Source: Vicinamibacteria bacterium
Lineage (GTDB): Bacteria; Acidobacteriota; Vicinamibacteria; Marinacidobacterales; Marinacidobacteraceae
Reading direction: 5' to 3'
NCBI GenBank assembly: GCA_963555995.3
Contig: OY821641.1
Location: 3,552,001-3,616,000, forward strand
DNA length: 64,000 nucleotides
Positions 7,131-28,582 of the stretch are shown here, one piece after another. The notes under the pieces are model-generated. The model was given only the letters and a program-made list of their open reading frames with translations. It searched no databases and was not told the origin of the DNA. Position 1 is the stretch's first letter. Each line of letters begins with the position of its first letter. A program made the position numbers and the translations under genes.

Positions 7131-9452
7131 TTAGTCGTCTGATCCGCCGGACTGCATGGCCCGCCAGACCTTTTCGGGTGTGAGGGGGGTATCGAGGTGC
7201 TCCACCCCGAACGGGCGGAGCGCATCCATCACCGCGTTGCAGACGGCGGGGGTGGAGCCGATGGTGGCGGCCTCGCCGATGCCCTTCACGCCGAGGGGGT
7301 TGACCGGGGTCGGGGTGACGGTGCGGTGGAGGTCGTACTTCGGCAGCATGTCGGCCTTGGGCACGGCGTATTCGAGGAGCGTCGGGGTCAGGAGGTTCCC
7401 GTCCGCGTCATAGACGGCGTCCTCGTAGAGCGCCTGGGCGATGCCCTGCGCGAGCCCGCCGTGCACCTGCCCCTCGGCGAGCAGCGGATTGATGACCTTG
7501 CCGCAATCGTCCACCGAGATGTAGCGAACGATCTCGACGGCGCCGGTGTCGGGATCGATCTCGACGGCGCAGAGGTGGGTCCCGAAGGGGAAGGTCTCGC
7601 CGGGCGGCTTGAAGTCCACGTCGGCGGTCAACTCGGCCGCGCTTCCCTCGGGAGCTTCGGTGGAATACGCGAACGCCGCGATCTCGGACCACCCCACCGC
7701 CCGCGCCGGTGAGCCGGCGACGAAGAACCGGCCGTCCTCGAAGCGGATGTCCTCGGTTGCCGCCTCGAGGAGCCGGGCGGCGAGCGCCTTCGCCCGCTCG
7801 CGCACCGTTTCGGCGTTGTTGAAGATCGCCGCTCCTCCCACCGGGGCGCTCCGGCTGCCGAAGGTGCCGATTCCGCGGGGGCATTCGTCGGTGTCGCCGT
7901 GGAGCACGGTGACGTCGTCCAGCGAGACCCCGAGCTGGTCGGCGGCGATCTGCGCCCACGCCGTCTCGTGCCCCTGCCCGTGCGGCGAGGTCCCGCTCCG
8001 CACGGTGACCGCTCCATCCGGCTCGACCGTGACGCCGCCGGCCTCCCACGGCCCGAAACCGCAGATCTCCACGTAGCAGGCGAGTCCGATGCCGAGCGGC
8101 TTCCCGCCCTCGGCGCGCCGCCGGGTCTGCTCGGCGCGGAGCCCGGCGTAGTCGCCGGCTTCGAGCGCCTTGTCGAGCGCCTTCTCGTACTCGCCGCTGT
8201 CGTAGGTGAGGCCGGTCGCCGTCCGGTAGGGGAACTTGTGCGGCGGGATCAGGTTCCGGCGGCGAATCTCCGCCGGGTCCATCCCGAGCCGCCCGGCGAG
8301 CACGTCGAGCGCCCGCTCGATCAGGTAGGTGGCCTCCGGGCGGCCGGAGCCGCGGTAGGGCTCGTTCGGCGCCGTGTTCGTGAACGCGCCGACCGCGTGG
8401 GCGTGGGCGGTGGCCACGTCGTACGGCCCCACGATCATCGCCCCGGTGAGCGACGGCGTGGTGGGCCCGGGCCGGCTGAAGTAGGCGCCCGAGTCGTAGA
8501 GGACGTCCACGTCGCAGTGGCGCACCCGCCCGTCCCGTTCGGCCGCGACGTCCAGCGTCACGAACAGGTTGCGGCCGTGTGTCGTGGTCTGGAAGTCCTC
8601 GGTGCGGGTCGCGAACCAGCGGACCGGCCGGCCGAGTTTCAGCGCCAGCCAGGGGACGAGCACTTCCTCGGCGTAGAGGTTCGCCTTGGCGCCGAACCCG
8701 CCGCCGACCTCGGGCGCAATGGTCCGCAGCCGCTCCTCGGGGATCCCCAGGATGCGCGCCACACTCGACTTGACGCGGTGCGCGGACTGGGTGGAGGTCC
8801 ACATCGTGATCCGGTCGCCGTCCACCCGCGCCGCGACCGCGCGCGGTTCCATCGCGCTCGGGATCAGCCGCTGGATCCGGAAATCGAGCGAGACCTCGAC
8901 CTCGCCCGACGCCGCCTCGGGCGCGCCTTCGGGATGGAGTTCCCAGACGAAGGCCCGGTTTCCCTCGGCCTCGTCGTAGAGCGGCTCTGCGCCTTCGGCC
9001 CGCGCCGCGCGGGAATCGCCGGCGCCGGGAAGGTCCCGGTAGTCCACGTCCACCAGCGCGGCGGCATCGGCCGCCTGCGCGGCCGTCTCCGCCACCACCG
9101 CCACGACCGGATCGCCGACGGTGAGCACCTTCTTGTCGGCGAGCGCCCAGCGCGCGGGGATGTGCAGCTCGGTGAACGCGCCGCCGTCCGGGGCCTTCGC
9201 CACCGGGAAGGGCCGCTTCAGCGTCGGGAGGATGTCCGCCGCGGTGAACACCCCGGCGACGCCCGGTGCGGCGGCGGCTTCCTCCGTCTCGATGGAGACG
9301 ATCTCGGCGTGGGGATAGGGGCTCCGCACCACCGCGAGATGGAGGGCGCCGGGCAGCGGGATGTCCGGCGTGTAGAGCGCCTGGCCGGTGACCAGGCGGG
9401 GATCCTCCCGCCTCCGGACCCGCTCGCCGATGGTCTGGGTTCTGATCGCCAA
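7131..9452 (-). CDS. Xanthine dehydrogenase-family molybdopterin-binding subunit (CoxL/CutL-like, not form I)
   Basis: RREDPRLVTG, GGGFGAK, PYRGSGRPE, HGQGHET, GTFGSRS, GQVHGG and KGIGEA. TTG start inferred. Confidence 0.92.
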   Translation of the reverse strand: MAIRTQTIGERVRRREDPRLVTGQALYTPDIPLPGALHLAVVRSPYPHAEIVSIETEEAAAAPGVAGVFTAADILPTLKRPFPVAKAPDGGAFTELHIPARWALADKKVLTVGDPVVAVVAETAAQAADAAALVDVDYRDLPGAGDSRAARAEGAEPLYDEAEGNRAFVWELHPEGAPEAASGEVEVSLDFRIQRLIPSAMEPRAVAARVDGDRITMWTSTQSAHRVKSSVARILGIPEERLRTIAPEVGGGFGAKANLYAEEVLVPWLALKLGRPVRWFATRTEDFQTTTHGRNLFVTLDVAAERDGRVRHCDVDVLYDSGAYFSRPGPTTPSLTGAMIVGPYDVATAHAHAVGAFTNTAPNEPYRGSGRPEATYLIERALDVLAGRLGMDPAEIRRRNLIPPHKFPYRTATGLTYDSGEYEKALDKALEAGDYAGLRAEQTRRRAEGGKPLGIGLACYVEICGFGPWEAGGVTVEPDGAVTVRSGTSPHGQGHETAWAQIAADQLGVSLDDVTVLHGDTDECPRGIGTFGSRSAPVGGAAIFNNAETVRERAKALAARLLEAATEDIRFEDGRFFVAGSPARAVGWSEIAAFAYSTEAPEGSAAELTADVDFKPPGETFPFGTHLCAVEIDPDTGAVEIVRYISVDDCGKVINPLLAEGQVHGGLAQGIAQALYEDAVYDADGNLLTPTLLEYAVPKADMLPKYDLHRTVTPTPVNPLGVKGIGEAATIGSTPAVCNAVMDALRPFGVEHLDTPLTPEKVWRAMQSGGSDD

Positions 9453-9568
9453 TGTCGTTCGTCGTCCGAGGGGGGCCGATTCTAGCGACCGATTTCGGCG
9501 GGGCGACGTAATAGGGTGCGCCGTCCGCGCGTATTCGTCAGCACGGCCCGGTTTCCCGAAGCACCCGT

Positions 9569-10492
9569 ATGCCCTCCGAACCCCCATCCCCGGCGGCGCT
9601 CGCGGGGCTCTCCGGCGTCAGCCACCGCTACGGCGACGTCCTGGCGCTCGACCGGCTCGATCTGGAGGTCCGGCAGGGCGAGGTGCTCGCGGTGCTCGGA
9701 CCGAACGGGGCCGGCAAGACCACCGCGGTCAGCCTGCTGCTCGGGACGCTCACCTTGCAGTCCGGAACTGCCCGGGTCTTCGGGAGCGCTCCGGACGCCG
9801 CGAATGTCCGCCTCCGGCGGGGCGCCATGCTGCAGGTCTCGGGCGTCCCCGAGACGCTCACCGTCGCTGAGCACCTGGCGCTCTTCCGCGCCTACTACCC
9901 GTCGCCACTGCCGACCGCGCGCCTCCTGGAGATGGCCGGGCTTCGGGAGCTCCGCGACCGGCGGTTCGGCAAGCTCTCGGGCGGCCAGAAGCAGCGGGTG
10001 ATGTTCGCGCTGGCGCTCGCCGGCGACCCGGAGCTGGTGTTCCTGGACGAGCCGACCGCGGGGTTGGATCTCGACGGACGCCGCCGCCTCTGGGACGAGA
10101 TCCGCGCCCTCAAGGCGGCGGGACGCACCGCCGTGCTCACCACCCACTACCTCGAGGAGGCGGACGCGCTCGCCGACCGGATCGCGGTGATCCACCGGGG
10201 CCGGCTGATCGCCGAGGGAAGCCCGGAGGACATCAAGTCCCGCACCGCCGGGCGCGTGGTTCGCTGCGTCACGACGATTACCCCCGAAACGGCGCGGTCC
10301 TTCCCGGAAGCCGCCGGGGTGGAGACGAAGGGGCAGCATCTGGAGGTCGTGACCGCGGAACCGGAAGCGGTGCTCCGCAGGATGTTCGCGCTCGACCCGG
10401 AACTCGGCGACCTGACGGTGGTCGGCGTCGGGCTCGAGGAGGCGTTCCTTGCGCTGACCGGCGACGGCGCCGGGTCGGACGGGGAGGCGTAG
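9569..10492 (+). CDS. ABC transporter ATP-binding protein
   Basis: GPNGAGKT, LSGGQ, FLDEPT and TTHY. Confidence 0.95.
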   Translation: MPSEPPSPAALAGLSGVSHRYGDVLALDRLDLEVRQGEVLAVLGPNGAGKTTAVSLLLGTLTLQSGTARVFGSAPDAANVRLRRGAMLQVSGVPETLTVAEHLALFRAYYPSPLPTARLLEMAGLRELRDRRFGKLSGGQKQRVMFALALAGDPELVFLDEPTAGLDLDGRRRLWDEIRALKAAGRTAVLTTHYLEEADALADRIAVIHRGRLIAEGSPEDIKSRTAGRVVRCVTTITPETARSFPEAAGVETKGQHLEVVTAEPEAVLRRMFALDPELGDLTVVGVGLEEAFLALTGDGAGSDGEA

Positions 10493-16810: not shown

Positions 16811-17053
16811 GTGGCCAGAATGAAGACGAAGACAAAGCTCACGATCACAGTGGACAGTGACCTGCTTACCCGAGCCAAACAGTACGCGCACGCTCGGGGT
16901 GTGTCCGTGTCTTCCCTGGTCGAGGCTGCGCTTCGAGAGGTCGCGGAGGCGGACACTCCCTCGTTCGCGTCCCGGTGGAGAGGCCAGTTCAAGCCGGCCG
17001 AGCGGGACGACACCCGCTATCGCGCACTCGCCGAAAAGTATCGGTCAGGATAA
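16811..17053 (+). CDS. Ribbon-helix-helix antitoxin-like protein (DUF6364-like)
   Basis: TKLTITVDSDLLTRAKQYAHARGVSVSSLVE. Paired ATACGTA boxes upstream at 16771 and 16791. The start may be ATG 16820. Confidence 0.75.
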   Translation: MARMKTKTKLTITVDSDLLTRAKQYAHARGVSVSSLVEAALREVAEADTPSFASRWRGQFKPAERDDTRYRALAEKYRSG

Positions 17054-20000
17054 CTGGGGGCGGAACCTGGTGGCGACGTACTTCCCCGCGTCGCCCTCTC
17101 CCAAGCGCACGGTTCCCGGGCCACTGCGAACGTAGAAGTCCCCCTCCGGGGCCTTCTCCACGCCCTTCCAACGCAGGTGCACCGGCTCCGGGCTCCGCTG
17201 GCAACTCACCAGACACACCGTCTTCCCCGCCACGATCTGCGTAGTCGGATCAATGCACGTCCCGGCGCGGTCGCCGAGGCCGTTGCGGACCGCCTGGGCC
17301 AGGTGCCGCAGGAACTTGTCGTCGGTCTCCAGCCGGTCGTGCTCGATGCCGAGCACCGTGCGGTCGTCGGCCACGCCGATCAGTAGATCCCCGCCCTCCG
17401 TGTTCAGGAACGCCGCGATGGTCTTGAGCGCCGCGTGGGTGATGCGGCGGTCGTCCTTGCGGTCCTCCTTCAGGTTCCAGCGCAGGCTCGACTTGAACTC
17501 CAGCGTCTTCGACTCCTGGAGCTTCAGCAGCTCCTCGGCGCGGCGGTGGCGCTTGATGTAGTCGTCGAAGAGCAGGTTCTTGAGCAACTGCCCGAAGTCG
17601 GGGTCGTCGGTGATGCGCTTGTAGAGGTCGAAGTTCGTCTCGACGATCTCCTGGATCTTGTCTTCGAGCTTGGGATCGAAGGTCAGCCGCACGTTCTCGC
17701 GGGTGTTCACCCGGGCGCTGGCGTCGAGGCCGGCGTCCTCGTCGAGCGCGGAGCGGAGGTGCTCCAGCGTGAGGCGGTGCTCGGGGCCGAGGTCGAGGCC
17801 GAAGCGCTGGTTCAGTTCCTCGATGATCTGGGACAGCGCCTCCAGCTCCGCCGCGTCCGCGCCTGCCGGTGACTTGCTGCCGGCGGGGTCGAGCGCCCCG
17901 ACCTGGCGTTCCAGTGCGATGCGCCCCCGGCTCGTCCGCTGCACGCGGAAGGACTCGATGTCAATGCTCTCCCGGACCTCCAGCGGCAGCGCCTCGCGCT
18001 CGCCCGCGAGCAGCGGTGCGAGGAACCGGGCGAACGCGTAGAGCTTCTCCAGATCGGTGTCCTCGAAGGGGATGACCTGGGAGAGGAAGGCGTAGAGCCG
18101 GAGGTACTCGGCGAGCTGGCTCCGGAACTCGTGGGCGGCGTCGTCGCTGATGCCGACGTAGCGCTGGCGGACGGGTTCGAGCGCGGCGTAGAGCTCTTCC
18201 TGGGCGGGCCGCTCGCGGAAGTACGCCCGGGCGAAGGCGCCTACGTCGTCCGCGTCGAACACCCCGAAGCCGAGCAGCCGGCCCTCGACCTCGTAGAGCA
18301 GATTGGGGTCGGTCTCCTCGGAGAGGAGGGTGGCGTCGTAGTAGGGCTCGAACGCCTTCCGGATCTCGTCGGCCTCGTTCGCGAAGTCGAGGACCATCGC
18401 GCCGTCCTTGCCGGGGTGGGTGCGGTTCAGGCGGGAAAGCGTCTGGACCGCGTTCACGCCGCCGAGCTTCTTGTCCACGTACATCGTGTGGAGCAGGGGT
18501 TGGTCGAAGCCGGTCTGGAACTTGTTGGCCACCACGAGGAAGCGGACCTCGGGCTTCCCGAACTCCGCCGCCGTCTGCCGGTCGCTGATGACGCGCTCCT
18601 CGCCGGCGGAGTTCATGCCGGACTCGGTGTAGGACCGGCCGCCGTCGTTCACCGTGCCGGAGAAGGCGACGAGCGCCTTCCAGGGGTGGCCCCGCTCCCG
18701 GAGCGCGCGGTCGAGCGCGACCCGGGTGCGCACCGCGTGGAGGCGCGAACGGGTCACGATCATCGCCTTGGCGCGGCCGCCGATCTTCGCCGCGACCTGC
18801 GATGCGAAGTGCTCCACGGCGATGGCGGCCTTCTCGCCGACGGCGTGCGGGTGCAGCTCGACGAAGGACTTGAGCAGGGCGGTGGCCTTTTGCCGGTCGT
18901 AGCGCGGGTCGGCCTCGATGGTCTTCAGCAGGCGCCAGCAGGAGCGGTAGGTGGTGTAGCTCTTGAGCACATCGAGGATGAAGCCCTCCTCGATCGCCTG
19001 CCGCATGCTGTAGAGGTGGAACGGCCGGAACGTCCCGTCCGGCTGCTTCTCGCCGAACAGCTCCATCGTCTTCGCCTTCGGGGTGGCGGTGAACGCGAAC
19101 ATCGAGAGGTTCGGCTGCGGACCGCGCCGGCGGATCTCCGCGAGGACGAGGTCCTCGAGTTCCTCTTCCGGCGTCCCGGCGCCCGCTTCCTCGCGCTCGG
19201 CCTCCTCGAGGCTGCCCGCCGCGAGGACGGCCTTGAGGCTCTTGGTGTGCTCGCCGGACTGCGACGAGTGCGCCTCGTCCACGATCACCGCGAAGCGCTT
19301 GCCGGGGAGCTGCCCGATCTGCTCGGAGATGACGGGGAACTTCTGGAGGGTGGTGACGATAATTGTCCGGCCCGCTTCGAGCGCCTCGCGAAGCTGGCGC
19401 GAGGTGTGTTCGATGTTCTCCACCACGCCGAGCGTCTGCTCGAACTGGACGATGGTGGTCTGGAGCTGGCGGTCGAGCACGCGCCGGTCGGTCACCACGA
19501 CCACCGAGTCGAAGACGCGCCGGTCCTCGTCGTCGTGCAGCACGGAGAGCTGGTGGGCGAGCCAAGCGATGGTGAAGCTCTTGCCGCTCCCGGCGGAGTG
19601 CTGGATCAGGGTGCGCCGGCCGGGGCCGCGGCGCCGCGCGTGGCGGACCAGCCGGCGCACGGCGTCGAGTTGCTGGTAGCGCGGGAAGATCAGGAAACGC
19701 CGGCCGGTCTTCCGGCCGCGGTCGTCCTCCTCCTCGATCTCGTGGATGAACTGGCGGATGAGATCGAGCACGCTGTCCCGCGCCCAGATGCGTTCCCACA
19801 GGTAGCGGGTCGCGTAGCCCAGCCGGGTGGGCGGGACCGGCGGGTTTCCGGCGCCGCCGTCGCGGCCCTGGTTGAACGGCAGGAAGCGCGTCTTCGGCCC
19901 GGCGAGCGCGGTGGTGACGAACACCTGGTCGGGGTCCACGGCGAAATGGGCGAGGCAGCGGCCGTAGGCGAGCAGCGGCTCCCGCGGGTCGCGGTCGGTG

Positions 20001-20587
20001 CGGTACTGGTGGATCGCGTCCCGCACGTCCTGGCCGGTGAACGGGTTTTTGAGCTCGGCGGTGAAGATGGGGATGCCGTTCAGGAACAGCGCGAGGTCGA
20101 GGCTCCGGCCGGTCTTCTCGCTGAAGCGCAGTTGGCGGACGACGGCGAAGAGGTTCGCGGCGTGGAGGCGCTGGGTCTCCTCGTTGAGGCCGCTCGCGGG
20201 GCGGAAATACGCGAGCCGGAAGCGGCAGCCCACGTCCCGGACGCCGCGCCGGAGCACGTCGAGCGCCCCGCGCCGGGCGATCTCGCGCGAGAGGCGGCCG
20301 AGGAAGCGGGGCCGGACGTTTTCGCCATAGTGCTGCCGCAGCCGTTGCCATTCCTCCGGCTGGGTGGCGAGGAGGAAGTCGAGGACGTCCGACGGGATCA
20401 GGCAGAGGGCGCGGTCGTAGTCCCGGGAATGGCGTTCGTGGTAGCCGCCGGGGGCGGGGTCGTCGTCGGACGGCGGGAGGGGTTCGGAGATGCCCCGGCG
20501 GCGGTGCGGCCGGGCGTCGGGGCCGTGCTGGAGGAGGGAGTACTCGATGGCGTCCTCGAACGCGCGTTCGGAGATGCCGAGTCTCAT
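17045..20587 (-). CDS. hsdR: Type I restriction endonuclease subunit R with C-terminal Schlafen/AlbA_2 domain
   Basis: DLALFLNGIPIFTAELK nuclease motif, HSAGSGKS, DEAH, FTATPK, FQTGFD and QTLSRLNR. C-terminal ESKTLEFK...AAFLNTEGGDLLIGVADD. Confidence 0.95.
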   Translation of the reverse strand: MRLGISERAFEDAIEYSLLQHGPDARPHRRRGISEPLPPSDDDPAPGGYHERHSRDYDRALCLIPSDVLDFLLATQPEEWQRLRQHYGENVRPRFLGRLSREIARRGALDVLRRGVRDVGCRFRLAYFRPASGLNEETQRLHAANLFAVVRQLRFSEKTGRSLDLALFLNGIPIFTAELKNPFTGQDVRDAIHQYRTDRDPREPLLAYGRCLAHFAVDPDQVFVTTALAGPKTRFLPFNQGRDGGAGNPPVPPTRLGYATRYLWERIWARDSVLDLIRQFIHEIEEEDDRGRKTGRRFLIFPRYQQLDAVRRLVRHARRRGPGRRTLIQHSAGSGKSFTIAWLAHQLSVLHDDEDRRVFDSVVVVTDRRVLDRQLQTTIVQFEQTLGVVENIEHTSRQLREALEAGRTIIVTTLQKFPVISEQIGQLPGKRFAVIVDEAHSSQSGEHTKSLKAVLAAGSLEEAEREEAGAGTPEEELEDLVLAEIRRRGPQPNLSMFAFTATPKAKTMELFGEKQPDGTFRPFHLYSMRQAIEEGFILDVLKSYTTYRSCWRLLKTIEADPRYDRQKATALLKSFVELHPHAVGEKAAIAVEHFASQVAAKIGGRAKAMIVTRSRLHAVRTRVALDRALRERGHPWKALVAFSGTVNDGGRSYTESGMNSAGEERVISDRQTAAEFGKPEVRFLVVANKFQTGFDQPLLHTMYVDKKLGGVNAVQTLSRLNRTHPGKDGAMVLDFANEADEIRKAFEPYYDATLLSEETDPNLLYEVEGRLLGFGVFDADDVGAFARAYFRERPAQEELYAALEPVRQRYVGISDDAAHEFRSQLAEYLRLYAFLSQVIPFEDTDLEKLYAFARFLAPLLAGEREALPLEVRESIDIESFRVQRTSRGRIALERQVGALDPAGSKSPAGADAAELEALSQIIEELNQRFGLDLGPEHRLTLEHLRSALDEDAGLDASARVNTRENVRLTFDPKLEDKIQEIVETNFDLYKRITDDPDFGQLLKNLLFDDYIKRHRRAEELLKLQESKTLEFKSSLRWNLKEDRKDDRRITHAALKTIAAFLNTEGGDLLIGVADDRTVLGIEHDRLETDDKFLRHLAQAVRNGLGDRAGTCIDPTTQIVAGKTVCLVSCQRSPEPVHLRWKGVEKAPEGDFYVRSGPGTVRLGEGDAGKYVATRFRPQLS

Positions 20588-21933
20588 GCGGCTTCGGCGC
20601 GGATGTCGATCTTGCCGGTGACGGCGGCGGAGATGAGGGCGGTGCGGTACTCGTGGAGGAGGGTGATGGCCATCTGAACCTTTGCGATGAGCGCGTCCGT
20701 ATTGGATGTTTGGCGGTCGAGGTAGTTGGCGATCACCCGCTGATCCTTCTTGGGTGGTTCAACCACGACGAGATCCTTGACCGCTTCCTGGGAAATGTTG
20801 CTGGCGAGGCCACCGCCCCCGCTGATCACGGATTCGATCTGCCAGCGGACAAGCCGTGAGTTCAGCGCATATCCAATGAAGTGGCGGTGTGCCCTTCTCG
20901 CGTTCGTGTGGAGTCGAAAAACCTTGTCGCATAACAGCAGGCGTGGACGGCATTCCCGTACTACCGCGACGGAACCCACAAGCTCTCGGGACCCACTCGC
21001 CCGTGACATGAGCACATCGCCAGCCTTGATTTCAAGAGATGGAAGGGGCTTGAGCCTCAAAGGTAGAGCCTTGTTCTCTGACTCCACGAACGCGCCCTGG
21101 TTGACACAGCCTGCCTTGAGAACTCCCCATTCATCGGCGTCGGCCTCACGGTTCTCGCATTCGGGACTCCATCCCTGTTCGATGTGACGCACGAGATGGC
21201 GGAGTCTCTTCACCGTCCAATGCGCCGGGATCGCGCCCAGCCACTTGATGCCGGAGTCCTTCATGGGCGCGTTCGGATCGATGCCCCGGGTGACCGCGCG
21301 CGTGATGAGCGCGGTGCGCTTTTCCTGAAGCAACTCGATCAGCCGCTCCTTCTTCGCCACCAGCGCATCAATCTTCACCGTCTCCCGATCGAGAAAGTTC
21401 GCGATGTCGCGCTGTTCCTCCAGAGGCGGCACCACCAGCGCGACGGACTCGAGATCTGCACTCGCCAGTTCCATGAAGGTGCTTCCCCGACCGGCGGCCT
21501 CAAGAACCGGCTTTGCGGCACGAACCTGAAAGTAGAAGTAGGTCTTACTGCTGGAGTCTCGAAACACAAGGGAGCGACAACCCTGATTCGTGCAGACGGG
21601 TGTGCCGGCAATTGCTAGATGGCCGATCGGCGCGCGGGTAGAAAGGACCAGAGTCCCGGCAGGGACCAACTGGGTGCCACAGCTCTCGTAGCCCTTGCGC
21701 GTGATGCACCGTCCCGGCTCAAAGAGCACCCTCTCCTCTATCTTGCCCAGGTCTTCGGGAGTCACCCACGGGATGTCCCCGTCCCAGTAGTCGGGTTCGC
21801 CACTCTTGGGCGTGGAACCGTTCACGACCCGAAACTGCCGTTTCAGGACCTTGGTTTCCCAATGCGACGGTATGCCGCTCATCCACTCGACGCCGGAGTC
21901 CTGGTATTCCGGGTATGGCCGGAAGCGCCGCAC
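20584..21933 (-). CDS. hsdS: Type I restriction-modification specificity subunit
   Basis: YPEYQDSGVEW, PPLEEQRDIANFLDRET, MKDSGIKWLGAIPAHW and ALISAAVTGKID. Two more AT-rich TRDs. Start is GTG 21933 or an upstream ATG (frame open to 21981). Confidence 0.95.
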   Translation of the reverse strand: MRRFRPYPEYQDSGVEWMSGIPSHWETKVLKRQFRVVNGSTPKSGEPDYWDGDIPWVTPEDLGKIEERVLFEPGRCITRKGYESCGTQLVPAGTLVLSTRAPIGHLAIAGTPVCTNQGCRSLVFRDSSSKTYFYFQVRAAKPVLEAAGRGSTFMELASADLESVALVVPPLEEQRDIANFLDRETVKIDALVAKKERLIELLQEKRTALITRAVTRGIDPNAPMKDSGIKWLGAIPAHWTVKRLRHLVRHIEQGWSPECENREADADEWGVLKAGCVNQGAFVESENKALPLRLKPLPSLEIKAGDVLMSRASGSRELVGSVAVVRECRPRLLLCDKVFRLHTNARRAHRHFIGYALNSRLVRWQIESVISGGGGLASNISQEAVKDLVVVEPPKKDQRVIANYLDRQTSNTDALIAKVQMAITLLHEYRTALISAAVTGKIDIRAEAA

Positions 21934-21942
21934 CCCGCGTCG

Positions 21943-22300
21943 ATCATGCCTCGATCCGCGCATCATGCCCCGATCCATCATGCCTCGATCCGCGCATCAT
22001 GCCCCGATCCATCATGCCTCGATATGGGGATCATGCCCCGATATCGGCCTCCGGCTTCGCGATCCGATTCTGTTTCCTGTTGTTCCCGATCGGGACCACC
22101 GGACCGATTGCCTACCGGTTCCAGGGCTCTTTTGGCCGGTTTCGGAGGCTTCCGACCCCGATTTCGCCGAACTGCCGGCCGTTTCGAGACAGCCGCTCTC
22201 CCCGTCTCCCCGAGTGCCCAACCGGCCCATCATGCCCCGATATCGCGTGATCATGCCTCGATATCGCCGATCATGCCCCGATTCGCGATCATGCCCCGAT
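21943..22300. repeat. Array of ten 13-bp ATCATGCCYCGAT direct repeats in two clusters
   Basis: Copies start at 21943, 21962, 21977, 21996, 22011, 22030 and at 22229, 22250, 22270, 22288. Confidence 0.9.
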
Positions 22301-22361
22301 CCGTGTGGACATCCGGCTCAGCCACCGCCGGATCGCGTCCTCGTCACCCAGCGCGACGGGG

Positions 22362-23003
22362 TCATGCTTGCAGGGCCTCCAGTGCCGGACGGATGAGTGA
22401 CTTGGCGCGGCAGATTTCGGCCGCCCGCCAAATCTGGCCGGAGGTCGCCTTGCGGTCGTAGAGCGTGTCGCGCAGGGCCTCAAGCGCTACGTCCAGGCCG
22501 ACGATGCGACGGAAGCGGAAGCAGTCCACCACGGTGCGCGCCGGCGTCGTGATACGTCCGGGAACACCGTCGAAGGTGGCGCTCACGACCCCGTAGCGCA
22601 GCGAGGCTCCGGAGAAACGGACCACCCGAATCGGCAGCTCCGGAACGTGGGGCGCGCGGGCCTTGTGGGGGATGCCGATCCAGACCTTGCGAGGAAGCTG
22701 GGTACCGATTTCGTAGATGTCCAGGGCGGTCACCAGGCAGACGATGGCGCCCGGAACCCGCGCGCACACGGCCCCCTCGGTGTAGTGTTCGGTCAGTTCG
22801 GCGTCGGTGTTGCGATAGAGGCCGCGCGCCACGCGGTCAACCGATCCGTCGTCCATCAGCCGCCGCAGTGTGCGGGAGTCGAGGCCCAGATCGGCAGCCT
22901 CGCGGCGGCGGAAGAAGGTTCGTCCGGCAAGCCGCTTCGGGTGAGCCGGGTGCTCTGAAATGTCGGCAATTACGTGTGATTGCCGACGTTTTGAAACAGA
23001 CAT
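22362..23003 (-). CDS. abiEi: Type IV toxin-antitoxin antitoxin / transcriptional regulator, AbiEi family
   Basis: N-terminal wHTH (RVARGLYR), CLVTAL, ITTPARTVVDCFRFR and VALEALR. Confidence 0.88.
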   Translation of the reverse strand: MSVSKRRQSHVIADISEHPAHPKRLAGRTFFRRREAADLGLDSRTLRRLMDDGSVDRVARGLYRNTDAELTEHYTEGAVCARVPGAIVCLVTALDIYEIGTQLPRKVWIGIPHKARAPHVPELPIRVVRFSGASLRYGVVSATFDGVPGRITTPARTVVDCFRFRRIVGLDVALEALRDTLYDRKATSGQIWRAAEICRAKSLIRPALEALQA

Positions 23004-23143: not shown

Positions 23144-23449
23144 TCAGGCCGGCACGTACCGTTCGACCCTGATCTCGTCCGCCCGGGCTCGCATGCACGA
23201 TGCGTCGTGCCATGCCTGCAAACGGAGCAGCAGATCCATGCTCACGCCGAACGCCTTCTCCACCCGAAGCGCCATCTCCGGCGAGAGTGCGGTGCCGCCG
23301 TTCAGGAGTTCGGAAAGCGTCGTCTTCCGGACCCCGAGAATCTCGGCCGCCCGGGTGACGCTGAGCCCCAACTCCTCAATGACTTCCGCGCGGATGAAGT
23401 CGCCCGGGTGAGAAGGCGTCATGTTGATTCGGATTCCTTTGCCAGCCAT
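23144..23449 (-). CDS. higA: HigA-family addiction module antitoxin
   Basis: HPGDFIRAEVIEELGLSVTRAAEILGV...LSPEMALRVEKAFG...LLRLQAWHD. Confidence 0.92.
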   Translation of the reverse strand: MAGKGIRINMTPSHPGDFIRAEVIEELGLSVTRAAEILGVRKTTLSELLNGGTALSPEMALRVEKAFGVSMDLLLRLQAWHDASCMRARADEIRVERYVPA

Positions 23450-23594: not shown

Positions 23595-23801
23595 TCAGGC
23601 GGACTTGTAGCGTTTCCGGAGCCGCCCAATGACCTCCTCGGCGGGCTCGGTCTGACCGGCTTCGATCTGTCGGTCTCCCAGTTCGAGTATCTGGAGGAGG
23701 GCCTCGGCCTCCTGCTGTCGTTCCCGGCTCGCGGCGTCGTTCGCCGGGGCTTGGGCGTCCATGGTGGAAAACGATTCCGGTGGCGTGGGTTTTTTCTTCA
23801 T
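23595..23801 (-). CDS. Small protein resembling the C-terminal half of Phd/YefM antitoxins (possibly truncated)
   Basis: ERQQEAEALLQILELGDRQIEAGQTEPAEEVIGRLR. The N-terminal Phd DNA-binding strand is not recognisable. Confidence 0.5.
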   Translation of the reverse strand: MKKKPTPPESFSTMDAQAPANDAASRERQQEAEALLQILELGDRQIEAGQTEPAEEVIGRLRKRYKSA

Positions 23802-23881: not shown

Positions 23882-25069
23882 ATGCCGCAGTCGTGGATTC
23901 CCCGGACGCTCGAACCGGTGCTCGACGGCCCGGCCGAAGCGCTCCGGCTCTTTCCCGTGTGGCTGCTGCTCGGGCCGCGGCAGGTCGGCAAGAGTTCCCT
24001 GCTGCATCGGTGCTCCAAGGGTCACGCCTTCGTCAACCTCGACGATCTCGAGGTGCGCGCACGGGCCACCGGCGATCCGGTCCTGTTCATGCGGGACCTC
24101 CGGCCGCCCTTCGTCATTGACGAGATCCAGTACGCGCCGGAACTGCTCAGTCCGATCAAGCGGATCGTGGACGAGGGCGCCCTGGAGCCCGGGGCGATCC
24201 GGCTGACGGGCTCCCAGAACTTCCGGGTGATGCAGGGCGTCACGGAAACGCTCGCCGGGCGGGTCGCGATTCTCAATCTCCTGGGGCTCACGGGGGAAGA
24301 AAAGAGGATCGTGGACCCGCTGACGCCGGGCGAGTACTTCGCCCGACTGCTGGAAACCGGTTTCCCCCGCCTGGCCGGCGTCCCCGAGGGCGCGGCCCGC
24401 GATCTCTACCTTTCGTCCTACGTCCAGACCTACATCGAGCGGGACGTGCGCGAGTTGCTCCGCATCGGCAAGCGCCGCGAGTTCGAGACGTTCGTCCGGC
24501 TGGCGGCGCTTCGTACCGGGCAGGTGGTGAACGTCCAGGACCTGGCCCGCGACGCGGGCGTCTCGCCGGCCACCGTCCGGGAGTGGCTCAGCCTGCTGGA
24601 GGACAGTTTCCTGATCCGGCTCGTCTCCCCGTATTTCACGAACCGGACGCGCCGGATGACGAAGAGCCCGAAGCTCTACTTCCTGGATGCCGGACTCGCC
24701 GCCTGGCTGGGCGGCTGGAGGACCGGCGACCAGGCCCGCCTGGGACCGATGGGCGGCGCCCTCTTCGAGACGCAGGTCTTCTCCGAGATCCTCCGCCGCT
24801 TTCGCCACCGGGCCGCCGAGGTCGAGATCCATTTCTGGCGCACCCGCGACGGACAGGAGATTGACTTCCTGGTCGAACACGCGGGCAAGGTCTGGCCGGT
24901 CGAGGTGAAGCTCGGCTCTCCGCGGGCCGGGCGCCTTCCGCGGCTCGATCGGATCGGCGGCCCGAACTGGCAGGCCGGCCAGCTCGTCTCCCTCGCCGCG
25001 CCGGAAGAACCGGTCCGCATTCGCGCGGACTGGACTCTCTCAACCCCGTCGGCGCTCGAACTTGGCTGA
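23882..25069 (+). CDS. AAA+ ATPase with DUF4143 and C-terminal PD-(D/E)XK-like motif
   Basis: GPRQVGKS, IDEIQ, LTGS, ETLAGR, KSPKLYFLDAGL and EIDFLVE...PVEVK. Confidence 0.92.
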   Translation: MPQSWIPRTLEPVLDGPAEALRLFPVWLLLGPRQVGKSSLLHRCSKGHAFVNLDDLEVRARATGDPVLFMRDLRPPFVIDEIQYAPELLSPIKRIVDEGALEPGAIRLTGSQNFRVMQGVTETLAGRVAILNLLGLTGEEKRIVDPLTPGEYFARLLETGFPRLAGVPEGAARDLYLSSYVQTYIERDVRELLRIGKRREFETFVRLAALRTGQVVNVQDLARDAGVSPATVREWLSLLEDSFLIRLVSPYFTNRTRRMTKSPKLYFLDAGLAAWLGGWRTGDQARLGPMGGALFETQVFSEILRRFRHRAAEVEIHFWRTRDGQEIDFLVEHAGKVWPVEVKLGSPRAGRLPRLDRIGGPNWQAGQLVSLAAPEEPVRIRADWTLSTPSALELG

Positions 25070-25316: not shown

Positions 25317-27428
25317 TCAGGTCGCCATGCCCTGGAGCATGGTGACGATGTCCTGTTCCACCTGCTGGATGTCGGCTTCGATGTCCTCCAGCGGGCGGGG
25401 CGGGCGGTACTCGTAGAAGGTGCGGTTGAAGTTGATCTCGTAGCCGACGAGGCCGACCTGGCCGTCGTGGGGGTCGCGGCGGGTCTCGTCAATCCAGGCG
25501 TCGGGGACGTGGGGCCGCACCTCGCGCTCGAAGAACGCCTCGATGTCCTCGCGGAGCGGGACGTTCTCCGTGTCGCGGAGGTCCGGGTCGGGCTCGGGGC
25601 GGCCCTCCGGGTCCCGGCAGACCGCCGCCTGCTCGTTGCGCGCGGAGAGCGCGGCGAGGACCGCCTTGCGGAGGGGCGCGGGGAGCTTCAGCTTCGCTTC
25701 CTCCGCCGCCTGCGACAGCGCCGCGTCGAACTCGGCGCGGTCGAGGAAGAGCCGGTCGGGCAGGGTGCGGAGCATCGCCCGGATGGCGTCCTGCCGGGCG
25801 CGGCCCGCCTCCTCGTCCTTCGCCCGGGCCTCGCCCCGCTTGCGGGAGACGGCGAGGTTGGCGAACGGCTTCCGCTCGTCGAGCCGGGCGATCCGCTCGG
25901 GGCTGGCCCGGAAGTCGAGCCGGAGCGGGCGCTCGACGGTGATCTTGCGGTAGCCGAAGTGGGTGGTCGGGTAGATGCGGCTGACGACGGCCTCGCGTTC
26001 CCCGCCGCCCTCGGGGACCGAACGCTGCGCGCCGTCCTCGAAGTCGGCGAGCAGGCGCAGCACGTCTTCCTTGCGCTCGAAGGGGACCTCGCGGCGCTTG
26101 GCGCCGAGGCTCTTGCGGAGCGGCGTCCAGAACGAGGTCGCGTCCACGAGCTGGACCCGGCCCTGGCGTTCGGGCCGCTTCCGGTTGGTGAGCACCCAGA
26201 CGTAGGTCGCGATGCCGGTGTTGTAGAAGAGCTGCTCGGGCAGCGCGATGAGCGCTTCGAGGAGGTCGTTCTCGAGGATCCAGCGGCGGATCTCGCTCTC
26301 GCCGCTGCCGGCGTCGCCGGTGAAGAGCGGCGAGCCGTTCATGATGATGGCGACCCGCGAGCCGCCCTCGGACGGCGCCTTCAGGTGGGCGAGCATGTGC
26401 AGGAGGAAGAGCAACTGGCCGTCGCTGATCCGCGGCAGGCCCGGCGCGAAGCGGCCGGCGGCGCCCCGGTCGTGCTCGGCCCTGACGGCGTCCTGATCGC
26501 GCTTCCAGTCCTTGCCGTAGGGGGGGTTGGCGATCAGGTAGTCGAAGGCCGCGGCGCCGTGCCGGTCGTTCGCGAGCGTGCTGCCGTAGAGGATGCGCTC
26601 CGCGTCGCGGCCGTCCTCCGACTTCATGAAGAGGTCGGACTTGCAGATGGCGAAGGTCTCCGGGTTCACCTCCTGGCCGAACAGGTGCACGTCGGCGTCC
26701 GGGTTCACGGCGTCGCTGCTGCGCTCGCCGTCGCGCGTCTCCCCGGCGGTGATGTGCTCCTTGGCGATGGTGAGCATCCCGCCCGAGCCGCAGCAGGGGT
26801 CGCAGACGCTCAGCACCACGCCTTTCGTGCGCAGCCGCTCCTCGTCGCCGGCTAGCAGCAGGTCCACCATGAGATGGACGACGTCGCGCGGGGTGAAGTG
26901 CTCGCCGGGGTTCTCGTTCAGCGCCTCGTTGAACTTGCGGATGAGCTCCTCGAAGATGGTGCCCATCGTGGGGTTGTCCACGGCGTCCGGGTGGAGGTCC
27001 ACCTTCGGGTCGCCGAACCGCTGCACGACCTGGAACAGGAGACCCGCTTCGTCCAGCTTGGAGATCGTGTTGTCGAAGTCGAAGCGGTCCAGCACCTCGC
27101 GCATGTTGGGGCTGAACCCGGCGATGTAGCGGCGCAGGTTGTCCGCGAGCTGGGGGGCGTCGGCGAGCAGCTTCGGGAAGTCGTATTTCGAGGTGTTGTA
27201 GAAGGCGAAGCCCGAGGCGTTCCGGAGCAGGTGGTCGAGGTTCCCGATCCGGTTCTGGTAGCGGGCCTGGACCTCCAGAACCCTCGGCTTCGTGGGGGCG
27301 AGCACGCAGTCGAGGCGGCGCAGCACGGTGAGCGGCAGGATCACGTCCTGGTACTTGCCGCGCTTGAAGGTGTCGCGGATCAGGTCCGCCACGCCCCACA
27401 GGAAGCTGACGATCTGGCTGTGGTTCAT
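25317..27428 (-). CDS. hsdM: Type I restriction-modification DNA methyltransferase subunit M
   Basis: FLWGVADLIRD, GEHFTPRDVV, DPCCGSGGML, ANPPY, FYNTGIATY and GYEINFNR. Confidence 0.96.
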   Translation of the reverse strand: MNHSQIVSFLWGVADLIRDTFKRGKYQDVILPLTVLRRLDCVLAPTKPRVLEVQARYQNRIGNLDHLLRNASGFAFYNTSKYDFPKLLADAPQLADNLRRYIAGFSPNMREVLDRFDFDNTISKLDEAGLLFQVVQRFGDPKVDLHPDAVDNPTMGTIFEELIRKFNEALNENPGEHFTPRDVVHLMVDLLLAGDEERLRTKGVVLSVCDPCCGSGGMLTIAKEHITAGETRDGERSSDAVNPDADVHLFGQEVNPETFAICKSDLFMKSEDGRDAERILYGSTLANDRHGAAAFDYLIANPPYGKDWKRDQDAVRAEHDRGAAGRFAPGLPRISDGQLLFLLHMLAHLKAPSEGGSRVAIIMNGSPLFTGDAGSGESEIRRWILENDLLEALIALPEQLFYNTGIATYVWVLTNRKRPERQGRVQLVDATSFWTPLRKSLGAKRREVPFERKEDVLRLLADFEDGAQRSVPEGGGEREAVVSRIYPTTHFGYRKITVERPLRLDFRASPERIARLDERKPFANLAVSRKRGEARAKDEEAGRARQDAIRAMLRTLPDRLFLDRAEFDAALSQAAEEAKLKLPAPLRKAVLAALSARNEQAAVCRDPEGRPEPDPDLRDTENVPLREDIEAFFEREVRPHVPDAWIDETRRDPHDGQVGLVGYEINFNRTFYEYRPPRPLEDIEADIQQVEQDIVTMLQGMAT

Positions 27429-28582
27429 GGGGCGATTCCCTCTTCGAGCGCCTCGAGATACCCGTCGTAGGCGAACAGGCGGTTCCGGCGCTTCCCAGTG
27501 AGTTCCCGGGCGATTCCGTATTCCACCAGCGTGTCCATGGCGGAGGCCGCCGTTCCGTAGGCCAGGTGGGTCCGTGCGCAGGCGGCCCGCAGCGAGAGGA
27601 TGGGACGCTCCTTCAGGGCGTCGTGAACGCGGATCGCCGAACTCGCGCGCCGGCCCGCCTTCCGCGCCAGCCGGTCCCGGTCGTCCTGGAACATCCGCGA
27701 AAGTCGCCCGGCCGTGGTGATGGCGTGTTCCGAGACCTGTTGCACTCCTTCCAGGAAGAACCCGATCCACGCTTCCCAGTCGCCGGTCCGCCGGACGTCG
27801 TTGAGCAGCTCGTAGTAGGTCGCCCGGTGCTGCTTGAGATACAGGCTCAGGTAGAGAAGGGGTTGCCGGAGCACCCCGGCCTGACACAGCAGCAGCGTGA
27901 CGAGCAGCCGGCCGATCCTGCCGTTTCCGTCGAGAAACGGGTGGATCGTCTCGAACTGCACATGGGCGAGCCCCGCCCGCACCAGCGCCGGGAGATTGTC
28001 GGTTTCGTCGTGGAGGAACCGCTCCCATGCGCTCATGCAGTCCGGCACGGCGTCCGCCGGAGGGGGGACGAAGTGGGCGTTGCCGGGCCGGGCGCCGCCG
28101 ATCCAGACCTGCGAGCGGCGGAACTCGCCGGGGTCCTTGTCGCTGCCCCGGCCGTGGGCCAGCAGGACGCCGTGGATTTCCCGGATCAGGCGGTTCGAGA
28201 GGGGGAAGTCCTGGAGGCGTCCAAGGCCGTGGTCGAAGGCCGCCACGTGGTTCGAGACTTCGCGGACATCGTCGAGCGGCGCTCCCGGAGCTTCCTCCAG
28301 TTCGAACAGCAGGAGGTTGGACAGCGTGGACTGGGTCCCCTCGATCTGTGACGACAGCACGGCCTCCTTGCGCACGTAGGAGTAGAGGAACAGGGCCGGG
28401 TTCGGGAAGAGTCCCGAGATGCCGTCGAGGCGTCCGAGGGCGAGACCCGCGCCTTCGAGCGCCCGCGGCAGTGGTCCGTCGAGCCGGAGGGGCGGATCCG
28501 GCGGCAGGGGCGCCGGCACGAAGGCGCGAACCGCTTCACCGGTGGTGGCGATGGTCCGGTACGAGCCGGTTGTCCGCTGCAT
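27425..28582 (-). CDS. Fic family protein with C-terminal wHTH
   Basis: EAVLSSQIEGT inhibitory motif and HPFLDGNGRIGR. ATGA overlap with hsdM. Confidence 0.93.
   Translation of the reverse strand: MQRTTGSYRTIATTGEAVRAFVPAPLPPDPPLRLDGPLPRALEGAGLALGRLDGISGLFPNPALFLYSYVRKEAVLSSQIEGTQSTLSNLLLFELEEAPGAPLDDVREVSNHVAAFDHGLGRLQDFPLSNRLIREIHGVLLAHGRGSDKDPGEFRRSQVWIGGARPGNAHFVPPPADAVPDCMSAWERFLHDETDNLPALVRAGLAHVQFETIHPFLDGNGRIGRLLVTLLLCQAGVLRQPLLYLSLYLKQHRATYYELLNDVRRTGDWEAWIGFFLEGVQQVSEHAITTAGRLSRMFQDDRDRLARKAGRRASSAIRVHDALKERPILSLRAACARTHLAYGTAASAMDTLVEYGIARELTGKRRNRLFAYDGYLEALEEGIAP

Follow-up and report, generated by a model that had tools for sequence, protein, structure and literature searches.

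A type I restriction subunit HsdR with a C-terminal Schlafen domain in a Vicinamibacteria bacterium

Introduction

Several described defense systems bring a Schlafen domain or another ribonuclease (RNase) close to restriction-modification (RM) enzymes. Fifty-five pSlfn architectures have been named, including RorSlfn5 and EcoSlfn7 DUF262-Slfn (Perez Taboada 2026, PMC13056530), Schlafens directly fused to RM methyltransferases appear in the Cash survey (Weickert 2026, PMC13462974), and a Schlafen-GHKL module is fused to the type I specificity subunit HsdS (bioRxiv 10.64898/2026.05.29.728809). In the PrrC-EcoPrrI pair a type I RM system holds an RNase as a second line of defense (PMC3710099; this RM backup precedent is also treated in PMC12707154), and Anantharaman 2013 (PMC3710099) described R-M systems in which an EcoEI-like helicase subunit carries a fused HEPN RNase and proposed a backup logic for them. 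Here we describe an hsdR-Schlafen fusion gene (17045..20587, minus strand) in a 64,000-nt stretch of Vicinamibacteria contig OY821641.1 (GCA_963555995.3; positions 3,552,001 to 3,616,000), referred to throughout as the window. The gene is one open frame of 1180 amino acids (aa), and the fusion is real, intact, conserved and widespread.

The HsdR-Schlafen fusion protein

The body of the protein has the N-terminal PD-(D/E)xK nuclease and superfamily 2 (SF2) motor of a type I HsdR, with Pfam matches to HSDR_N (aa 143-231), ResIII/SWI2_SNF2 (302-541) and T1R_D3-like (675-735), and PADLOC labels it REase_I. Nuclease residues D164, E178 (E178-x-K180) and K180 (20048..20098, minus strand) are intact, as are the motor residues (18422..19600, minus strand), from Walker A K336 through the DEAH box at 437-440 to motif VI, Q715-x3-R719-x2-R722. 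An earlier note on this DNA had described a complete HsdR, with nuclease, Walker A, DEAH and helicase motifs, running in frame into its tail; the Pfam and sequence motifs agree, and HSDR_N, helicase and SLFN_AlbA_2 are all found in one frame. The score against TIGR00348 (hsdR) is 211.5, under the cut-off of 284.55, which suggests that the protein belongs to a divergent HsdR subfamily. The full-length model has a mean predicted local distance difference test (pLDDT) score of 86.4, with EcoR124I HsdR as its top fold matches, and GC content at third codon positions is 0.92 in the tail versus 0.94-0.98 in the body.

The C-terminal tail (aa ~1016-1180; 17048..17542, minus strand) is a single-lobed Schlafen/AlbA_2 domain, assigned from PF04326, fold and secondary structure. 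The SLFN_AlbA_2 match (PF04326) spans aa 1025-1161 (E 8.9e-19, 68.6 bits versus a cut-off of 25.3), with only ~20 residues beyond it at the C-terminus, and in the full-length model the tail begins almost without a linker after the last HsdR helix (aa 996-1014). The Schlafen catalytic motif, as defined in PMC13056530 and PMC13462974, reads E1025-x4-E1030-x-K1032 (17492..17515, minus strand). Alignments place an Asp, D1074 (17366..17368, minus strand), after the AAFLNT box within G-V-A-D1074-D, opposite the GVDD Asp of mammalian SLFNs. In SLFN11 the GVDD Asp takes part in metal binding; of the SLFN11 residue roles that the earlier note cited, only E209A appears in a PDB title. The two Glu and one Asp that it singled out are all intact and D1074 is conserved; in bacterial Schlafens the catalytic residues that have been tested are those of E-x4-(E/D)-x-K.

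The AlphaFold model of the tail (mean pLDDT 87.7) matches DIP2311 (Z 13.8, root-mean-square deviation 3.1, 138 aligned), the SAMD9 tRNase domain (Z 11.5, 3.9, 155 aligned) and SLFN13 (Z 9.7, 2.8, 114 aligned). Schlafen-fold matches (DIP2311, SAMD9, mammalian SLFNs) range from Z 6.3 to 13.8, against 4.7 for the top non-Schlafen row, and a profile search with the tail also matches the bacterial tRNase CbCash (E 1.2e-4). No PADLOC or NCBIfam model matches the tail, and prediction of a tail homodimer gave a score of 0.00 with controls that also did not fold, and so speaks neither for nor against pairing. Three features that mark a pSlfn are found: PF04326 with a Schlafen fold, the E-x4-(E/D)-x-K motif and a location in a defense island. 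Both the PF04326 match and the fold bear out the suggestion that the tail is a Schlafen core, and the HsdR-Schlafen fusion is confirmed.

Recurrence and conservation of the tail

All 120 homologs of aa 900-1180 among the matches listed, one of them the window's own protein, contain PF04326. A relative is encoded in 69 GTDB loci, all from metagenome-assembled genomes, representing more than 12 phylum-level groups (Acidobacteriota, Gemmatimonadota, Pseudomonadota, Chloroflexota, Spirochaetota, Bacillota, Thermotogota and others), and hsdM/hsdS lie upstream of hsdR in most long loci. The tail family is present in 19 of 301 sampled genomes of the window's phylum (E < 1e-70), where 15 of 21 tail sites fall within frames of at least 1180 aa. 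Viral contigs yielded just two distant Schlafen matches (41% identity), and the tail is covered by none of the 15 listed among 1715 plasmid matches.

Sets chosen on the tail are potentially biased, and the conservation test was thus redone on loci for which HsdR aa 61-800 was the sole basis of selection. Among 80 such body-selected metagenome loci the tail is in frame in 63, out of frame in one and absent from eight, with an earlier break in four and the tail position off the contig in four; E-x4-E-x-K is kept in all 63 in-frame tails. E1025, E1030, K1032 and D1074 are invariant in the 41 full-length, de-duplicated body-selected relatives (one additional sequence was dropped as truncated), and so are D164, E178 and K180. 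Tail-selected relatives retain D1074 in 154 of 155 cases and the three nuclease residues in 155 of 155, and 11 of 12 distant tailed representatives retain the Schlafen motif. Nuclease and motor residues are invariant among tailed HsdR proteins; as their DNase remains intact, the Schlafen tail supplements DNA cleavage and does not replace it.

The ratio of nonsynonymous to synonymous substitution rates (dN/dS) in the 41 sequences is 0.12 for the tail. Values are 0.14-0.15 in the nuclease and motor regions and 0.19 in the helical region beside the tail; in 49 tail-selected sequences the ratio is 0.145 for the tail versus 0.146-0.266. Since codon pairs are non-independent and the tail dS is high, near saturation (17 of 396 pairs were dropped), these ratios are evidence of purifying selection and not precise rates.

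The earlier note had also raised the case of a fusion unique to this assembly, or a misassembly. Misassembly is rejected, as the HsdR+AlbA_2 architecture recurs across homologs, GTDB loci and body-selected loci alike. The HsdR-tail junction is bridged by a contig that a separate study obtained from a relative (run X5, 17253-17584); in the two best-matching runs no listed contig covers the whole stretch.

Evolutionary history of the tail

A tree of close relatives (42 rows) groups 26 tailed and two tailless proteins in one branch with support of 100 and places tailless sisters outside it. The tailless pair within the branch (L158, L169) both end just past the junction, and in the window's lineage the tail was gained once and cleanly lost twice. 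At a broader scale, among the top 150 HsdR representatives at 50% identity, 12 have the Schlafen tail, and on a 146-row HsdR tree, which omits 16 fragmentary representatives of the 150, the tail label requires seven changes (for both trees support is from FastTree only). In a 38-row domain tree the HsdR-borne Schlafens are interleaved with those fused to GmrSD, type IIG enzymes, an ion channel and other proteins; six changes are required, and the HsdR-borne group is monophyletic in 0 of 200 bootstrap trees. This interleaving argues that Schlafen is a mobile C-terminal module that has reached HsdR more than once.

Nine of the 150 representatives have other tails at the same place, recognized by eye: five with RxxxxH (HEPN-like; P0212, P0258, P0264, P0220, P0183) and four with H-D/N-R (PLD-like; P0207, P0245, P0246, P0250). 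Among these nine, one HEPN-like tail is followed by an ASCH domain and two proteins have a treble-clef zinc finger match. An Atlas lead at 0.85 is a 52-member cluster combining SLFN_AlbA_2 with T1RH-like_C, the C-terminus of another HsdR subfamily. Further arrangements include an HsdR-Schlafen-S24 peptidase (P0126), tails resembling S24 by eye (L137, L141, L143), an N-terminal EAD7 domain (P0190) and a tail matching PADLOC PDC-M32A (P0179).

In L066 a 1.4-kb insert with 18-nt inverted repeats (8582-10006) parts hsdR from the tail almost exactly at the junction, and the separated tail has its own ATG, a natural division of the two parts. In L109 (2891-4117) an ion-channel domain (Ion_trans) shares one protein with a Schlafen domain that has the catalytic motif. 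GmrSD/DUF262-Schlafen genes lie in or beside HsdR-Schlafen operons (L001:2077-4413, L013, L032, L105), giving two Schlafen effectors per locus. At nine loci (L024, L042, L059, L062-L064, L110, L112, L113) hsdR is truncated or deleted with the tail frame open, which is probably decay.

Operon and neighborhood

The cognate hsdM and hsdS genes are both upstream of hsdR in an operon of order hsdM-hsdS-hsdR. The hsdS specificity subunit gene (20584..21981, minus strand; PF01420, PADLOC Specificity_I E 2.6e-120) has a stop codon overlapping the hsdR start, and the hsdM methyltransferase gene (25317..27428, minus strand; PF12161 and PF02384, PADLOC MTase_I E 6e-266) encodes 703 aa from an internal ATG. 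Directly upstream of hsdM is a SoFic-like Fic gene (27425..28582, minus strand; Pfam, PADLOC), and between hsdM and hsdS is an abiEi-like antitoxin gene (22362..23003, minus strand; family scans, PADLOC). The hsdMSR genes, SoFic and AbiEi form a defense island within 10 kb. Two cargo genes lie inside the operon, an AAA_14-DUF4143 gene (23882..25069, plus strand; Pfam, PADLOC) and a higA-like antitoxin gene (23144..23449, minus strand; Pfam, NCBIfam).

A single query found no abiEii partner in the window or the genome, and short direct repeats occupy the gap at 21940-22304 of the window, where abiEi stands without abiEii. Among the 69 related loci abiEi is near or between hsdM/hsdS in 42 and abiEii is present in 31 (two partial); in L032 abiEii is joined in frame to hsdS. 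Apparent orphans of antitoxin-like type are the higA-like gene, with no evident higB, a DUF6364/RHH gene (16811-17053) convergent with the hsdR end and a 68-aa open reading frame (ORF) at 23595-23801. Clustering of neighbor ORFs revealed no conserved, dedicated tail partner (antitoxin) gene, yielding only hsdS, AbiE, Fic and scattered toxin-antitoxin cargo, and no PrrC-type ABC-ATPase and HEPN anticodon nuclease family is among the eight genes scanned.

Possible functions of the tail

We propose that the tail may be a backup tRNA-cutting effector that is turned on once a phage blocks or overwhelms the restriction complex, a reading to which we give a little less than an even chance. E1025, E1030 and K1032 would perform metal-dependent tRNA cleavage by analogy with tested relatives, as RorSlfn5 (E15/D20; PMC13056530), CbCash (E17/D22/K24; PMC13462974) and RzAgo (D32; bioRxiv 10.64898/2026.05.29.728809) carry the motif, cut tRNA and lose activity on its mutation. 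In single-lobed Schlafens two protomers rebuild the mammalian two-lobed site and become active by pairing (bioRxiv 10.64898/2026.05.29.728809), and from RzAgo and Cash we infer that two tails must likewise pair. Control of this pairing by the complex is suggested by the two HsdR subunits of R2M2S together with C-terminal tuning in EcoR124, in which a C-terminal mutation changes R1/R2 cycling; the tail is positioned at the HsdR C-terminal region, the tuner of R1M2S-to-R2M2S assembly in that enzyme. A change of assembly, caused by an anti-restriction protein or a stalled complex, could then free or pair the two tails. The expected result would be loss of tRNA and a stop to translation, an outcome that PrrC brings about from a gene of its own. 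The PrrC analogy, and the cost of firing at each successful restriction, favor release upon inhibition or failure of restriction.

A number of observations weigh against this proposal. Two close relatives have cleanly lost the tail, 138 of the 150 HsdR representatives lack a Schlafen tail, and the genome encodes a paralog from this broad HsdR subfamily (41% identity) that ends without one. The same Schlafen subgroup is found on GmrSD, type IIG enzymes, an ion channel and a sigma70-helix-turn-helix protein (a partner range drawn from the phylum sample, plasmids and individual loci), and with so many unrelated partners the domain could be a general add-on, leaving RM-specific coupling unsupported. 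The HEPN-like and PLD-like tails have no Pfam or PADLOC nuclease match, and an Atlas search of them gave only weak HEPN/RNase LS leads, below 0.9. Only two of seven Schlafen systems tested in E. coli were protective, and 30.4% of prokaryotic Schlafen genes are away from known defense genes (PMC13056530). Literature searches yielded no experiment on any HsdR-Schlafen, and the results here do not discriminate inhibition from activation as the trigger.

A broader form of the proposal, possible although doubtful, is that the HsdR C-terminus is a swappable effector slot, filled independently by Schlafen (on several occasions) and by HEPN-like and PLD-like nucleases, and that in this lineage the enzyme is its own guard, the two HsdRs of R2M2S providing two lobes whose assembly state switches the tRNase on when phage blocks restriction.

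Alternatively, the tail could be a tRNase activated by restriction itself, with binding of an unmethylated site assembling or moving two HsdRs so that the tails pair and RNA is cut beside DNA, perhaps only once foreign DNA exceeds a threshold. R2M2S, which translocates until it meets a barrier (PMC12707154), has two HsdR subunits, and the tail is attached almost without a linker. Single-lobe Schlafens depend on pairing, and what activates RzAgo is recognition of target DNA together with ATP. We nevertheless consider it unlikely, as cutting host tRNA at each successful restriction would presumably be costly, and PrrC, the known precedent, is kept repressed by its RM system (PMC3710099).

That the tail is catalytic or metal-binding but directed at DNA, or binds nucleic acid to aid restriction (loading, end processing) without shutting off translation, seems fairly improbable. 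Schlafen-fold domains also bind DNA (PDB titles for SAMD9 DBD, 7ksp, and SLFN5), one database calls a relative a 'putative DNA binding domain-containing protein' and the tail is fused to a DNA translocase, but all three tested bacterial Schlafens with the motif cleave tRNA, and the HsdR frame remains intact in close relatives without a tail, which makes it unlikely that restriction depends on the tail.

It is also improbable that HsdR or its complex is a mere scaffold or a sensor of a specific phage protein, with the tail firing regardless of restriction, in the manner of RorSlfn5 and its Ig-like sensor. A sensor is the typical fusion partner of prokaryotic Schlafens (PMC13056530), this subgroup joins many unrelated N-terminal partners, and several loci have an intact tail on a truncated HsdR; however, those loci also have broken hsdM or deletions and look like decay, and the invariant nuclease and motor residues in tailed proteins, with hsdM/hsdS upstream in most long loci, weigh against this reading.

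Finally, a passive passenger arising by neutral fusion with a neighboring defense-island gene is highly improbable: the DUF262-Schlafen genes often inside or beside these operons (L001, L013, L032, L105) could be donors and the tail can be lost, but its dN/dS of 0.12, catalytic residues invariant in 41 of 41 body-selected relatives and in-frame presence in 63 of 80 loci, with two nested relatives having lost it, argue otherwise. The earlier note's own alternative, a passive appendage, is likewise unlikely, since the tail is a Schlafen domain that recurs, keeps its catalytic residues and is under strong purifying selection.

If the tail is active, a single polypeptide of a type I restriction enzyme would cut both DNA and, as its fallback target, tRNA, and anti-restriction proteins (Ocr, ArdA) could be countered from within their target enzyme. 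An active tail would also offer a compact model of how a motor, through its assembly state, can switch single-lobed bacterial Schlafens. The tail family is common among environmental and host-associated bacteria.

Comparison with known systems

Among solved structures the best sequence and fold match is EcoR124I HsdR (type IC), although identity in the structural alignment is ~16% and that protein, at 1038 aa, is without a Schlafen tail. PrrC is a separate ABC-ATPase/HEPN protein, whereas the RNase-type domain in the window is covalently attached and has the Schlafen fold. SLFN-pAgo and Schlatpase resemble the fusion in placing a single-lobed Schlafen on a nucleic-acid-sensing machine, with pairing rebuilding the active site (bioRxiv 10.64898/2026.05.29.728809), but their Schlafen is N-terminal with a GHKL ATPase, and that of the window protein is C-terminal, on HsdR and without GHKL. 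The Cash system differs in that CbCash is activated by cA4 through Csx15 (PMC13462974); a Pfam scan of the fusion protein shows no GHKL ATPase, Argonaute or Csx15 sensor.

The pSlfn proteins share with the window protein PF04326 with E-x4-(E/D)-x-K, fusion to another domain and a defense locus, but a full HsdR fusion is absent from the 55 architectures in the available parts of PMC13056530, in which no HsdR fusion was assayed. Supplementary Table 2 of that paper has no PF04313, PF04851 or PF18766 row (supplement files 1-10, 12 and 21 of 26 were searched); it does include one T1R_D3-like+SLFN protein of ~517 aa, filed as P-loop_NTPase.pSlfn, and other classes are TRD.TRD.pSlfn and Rossmann(.TRD).pSlfn. 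In PMC13462974 no HsdR fusion is named in the accessible text and 'HsdR' has 0 matches in six supplementary files, with Figure 6 outside the search. Among the entries of its Supplementary Data 3 are GIW53030.1 (1192 aa, with RM_Type_I as the nearest system), uncommented in the text, and four further RM_Type_I rows of 1140-1177 aa; the Schlafen domain of GIW53030.1 is, by eye, a member of the window's tail family.

No HsdR-Schlafen fusion is mentioned in the available portions of PMC12707154, PMC12839542, PMC6765204, PMC11090510 and 10.1101/776245, and literature searches, in which subscription journals were thinly covered and figures and preprint supplements were outside the search, returned no paper describing one. 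Given the 2013 HEPN-helicase proposal, the printed Schlafen fusions to HsdS and methyltransferases, and the relative in a 2026 supplement, the fusion is not categorically new. HsdR-Schlafen is an undescribed pairing of two known defense modules, whose logic was already predicted for HEPN-HsdR in 2013.

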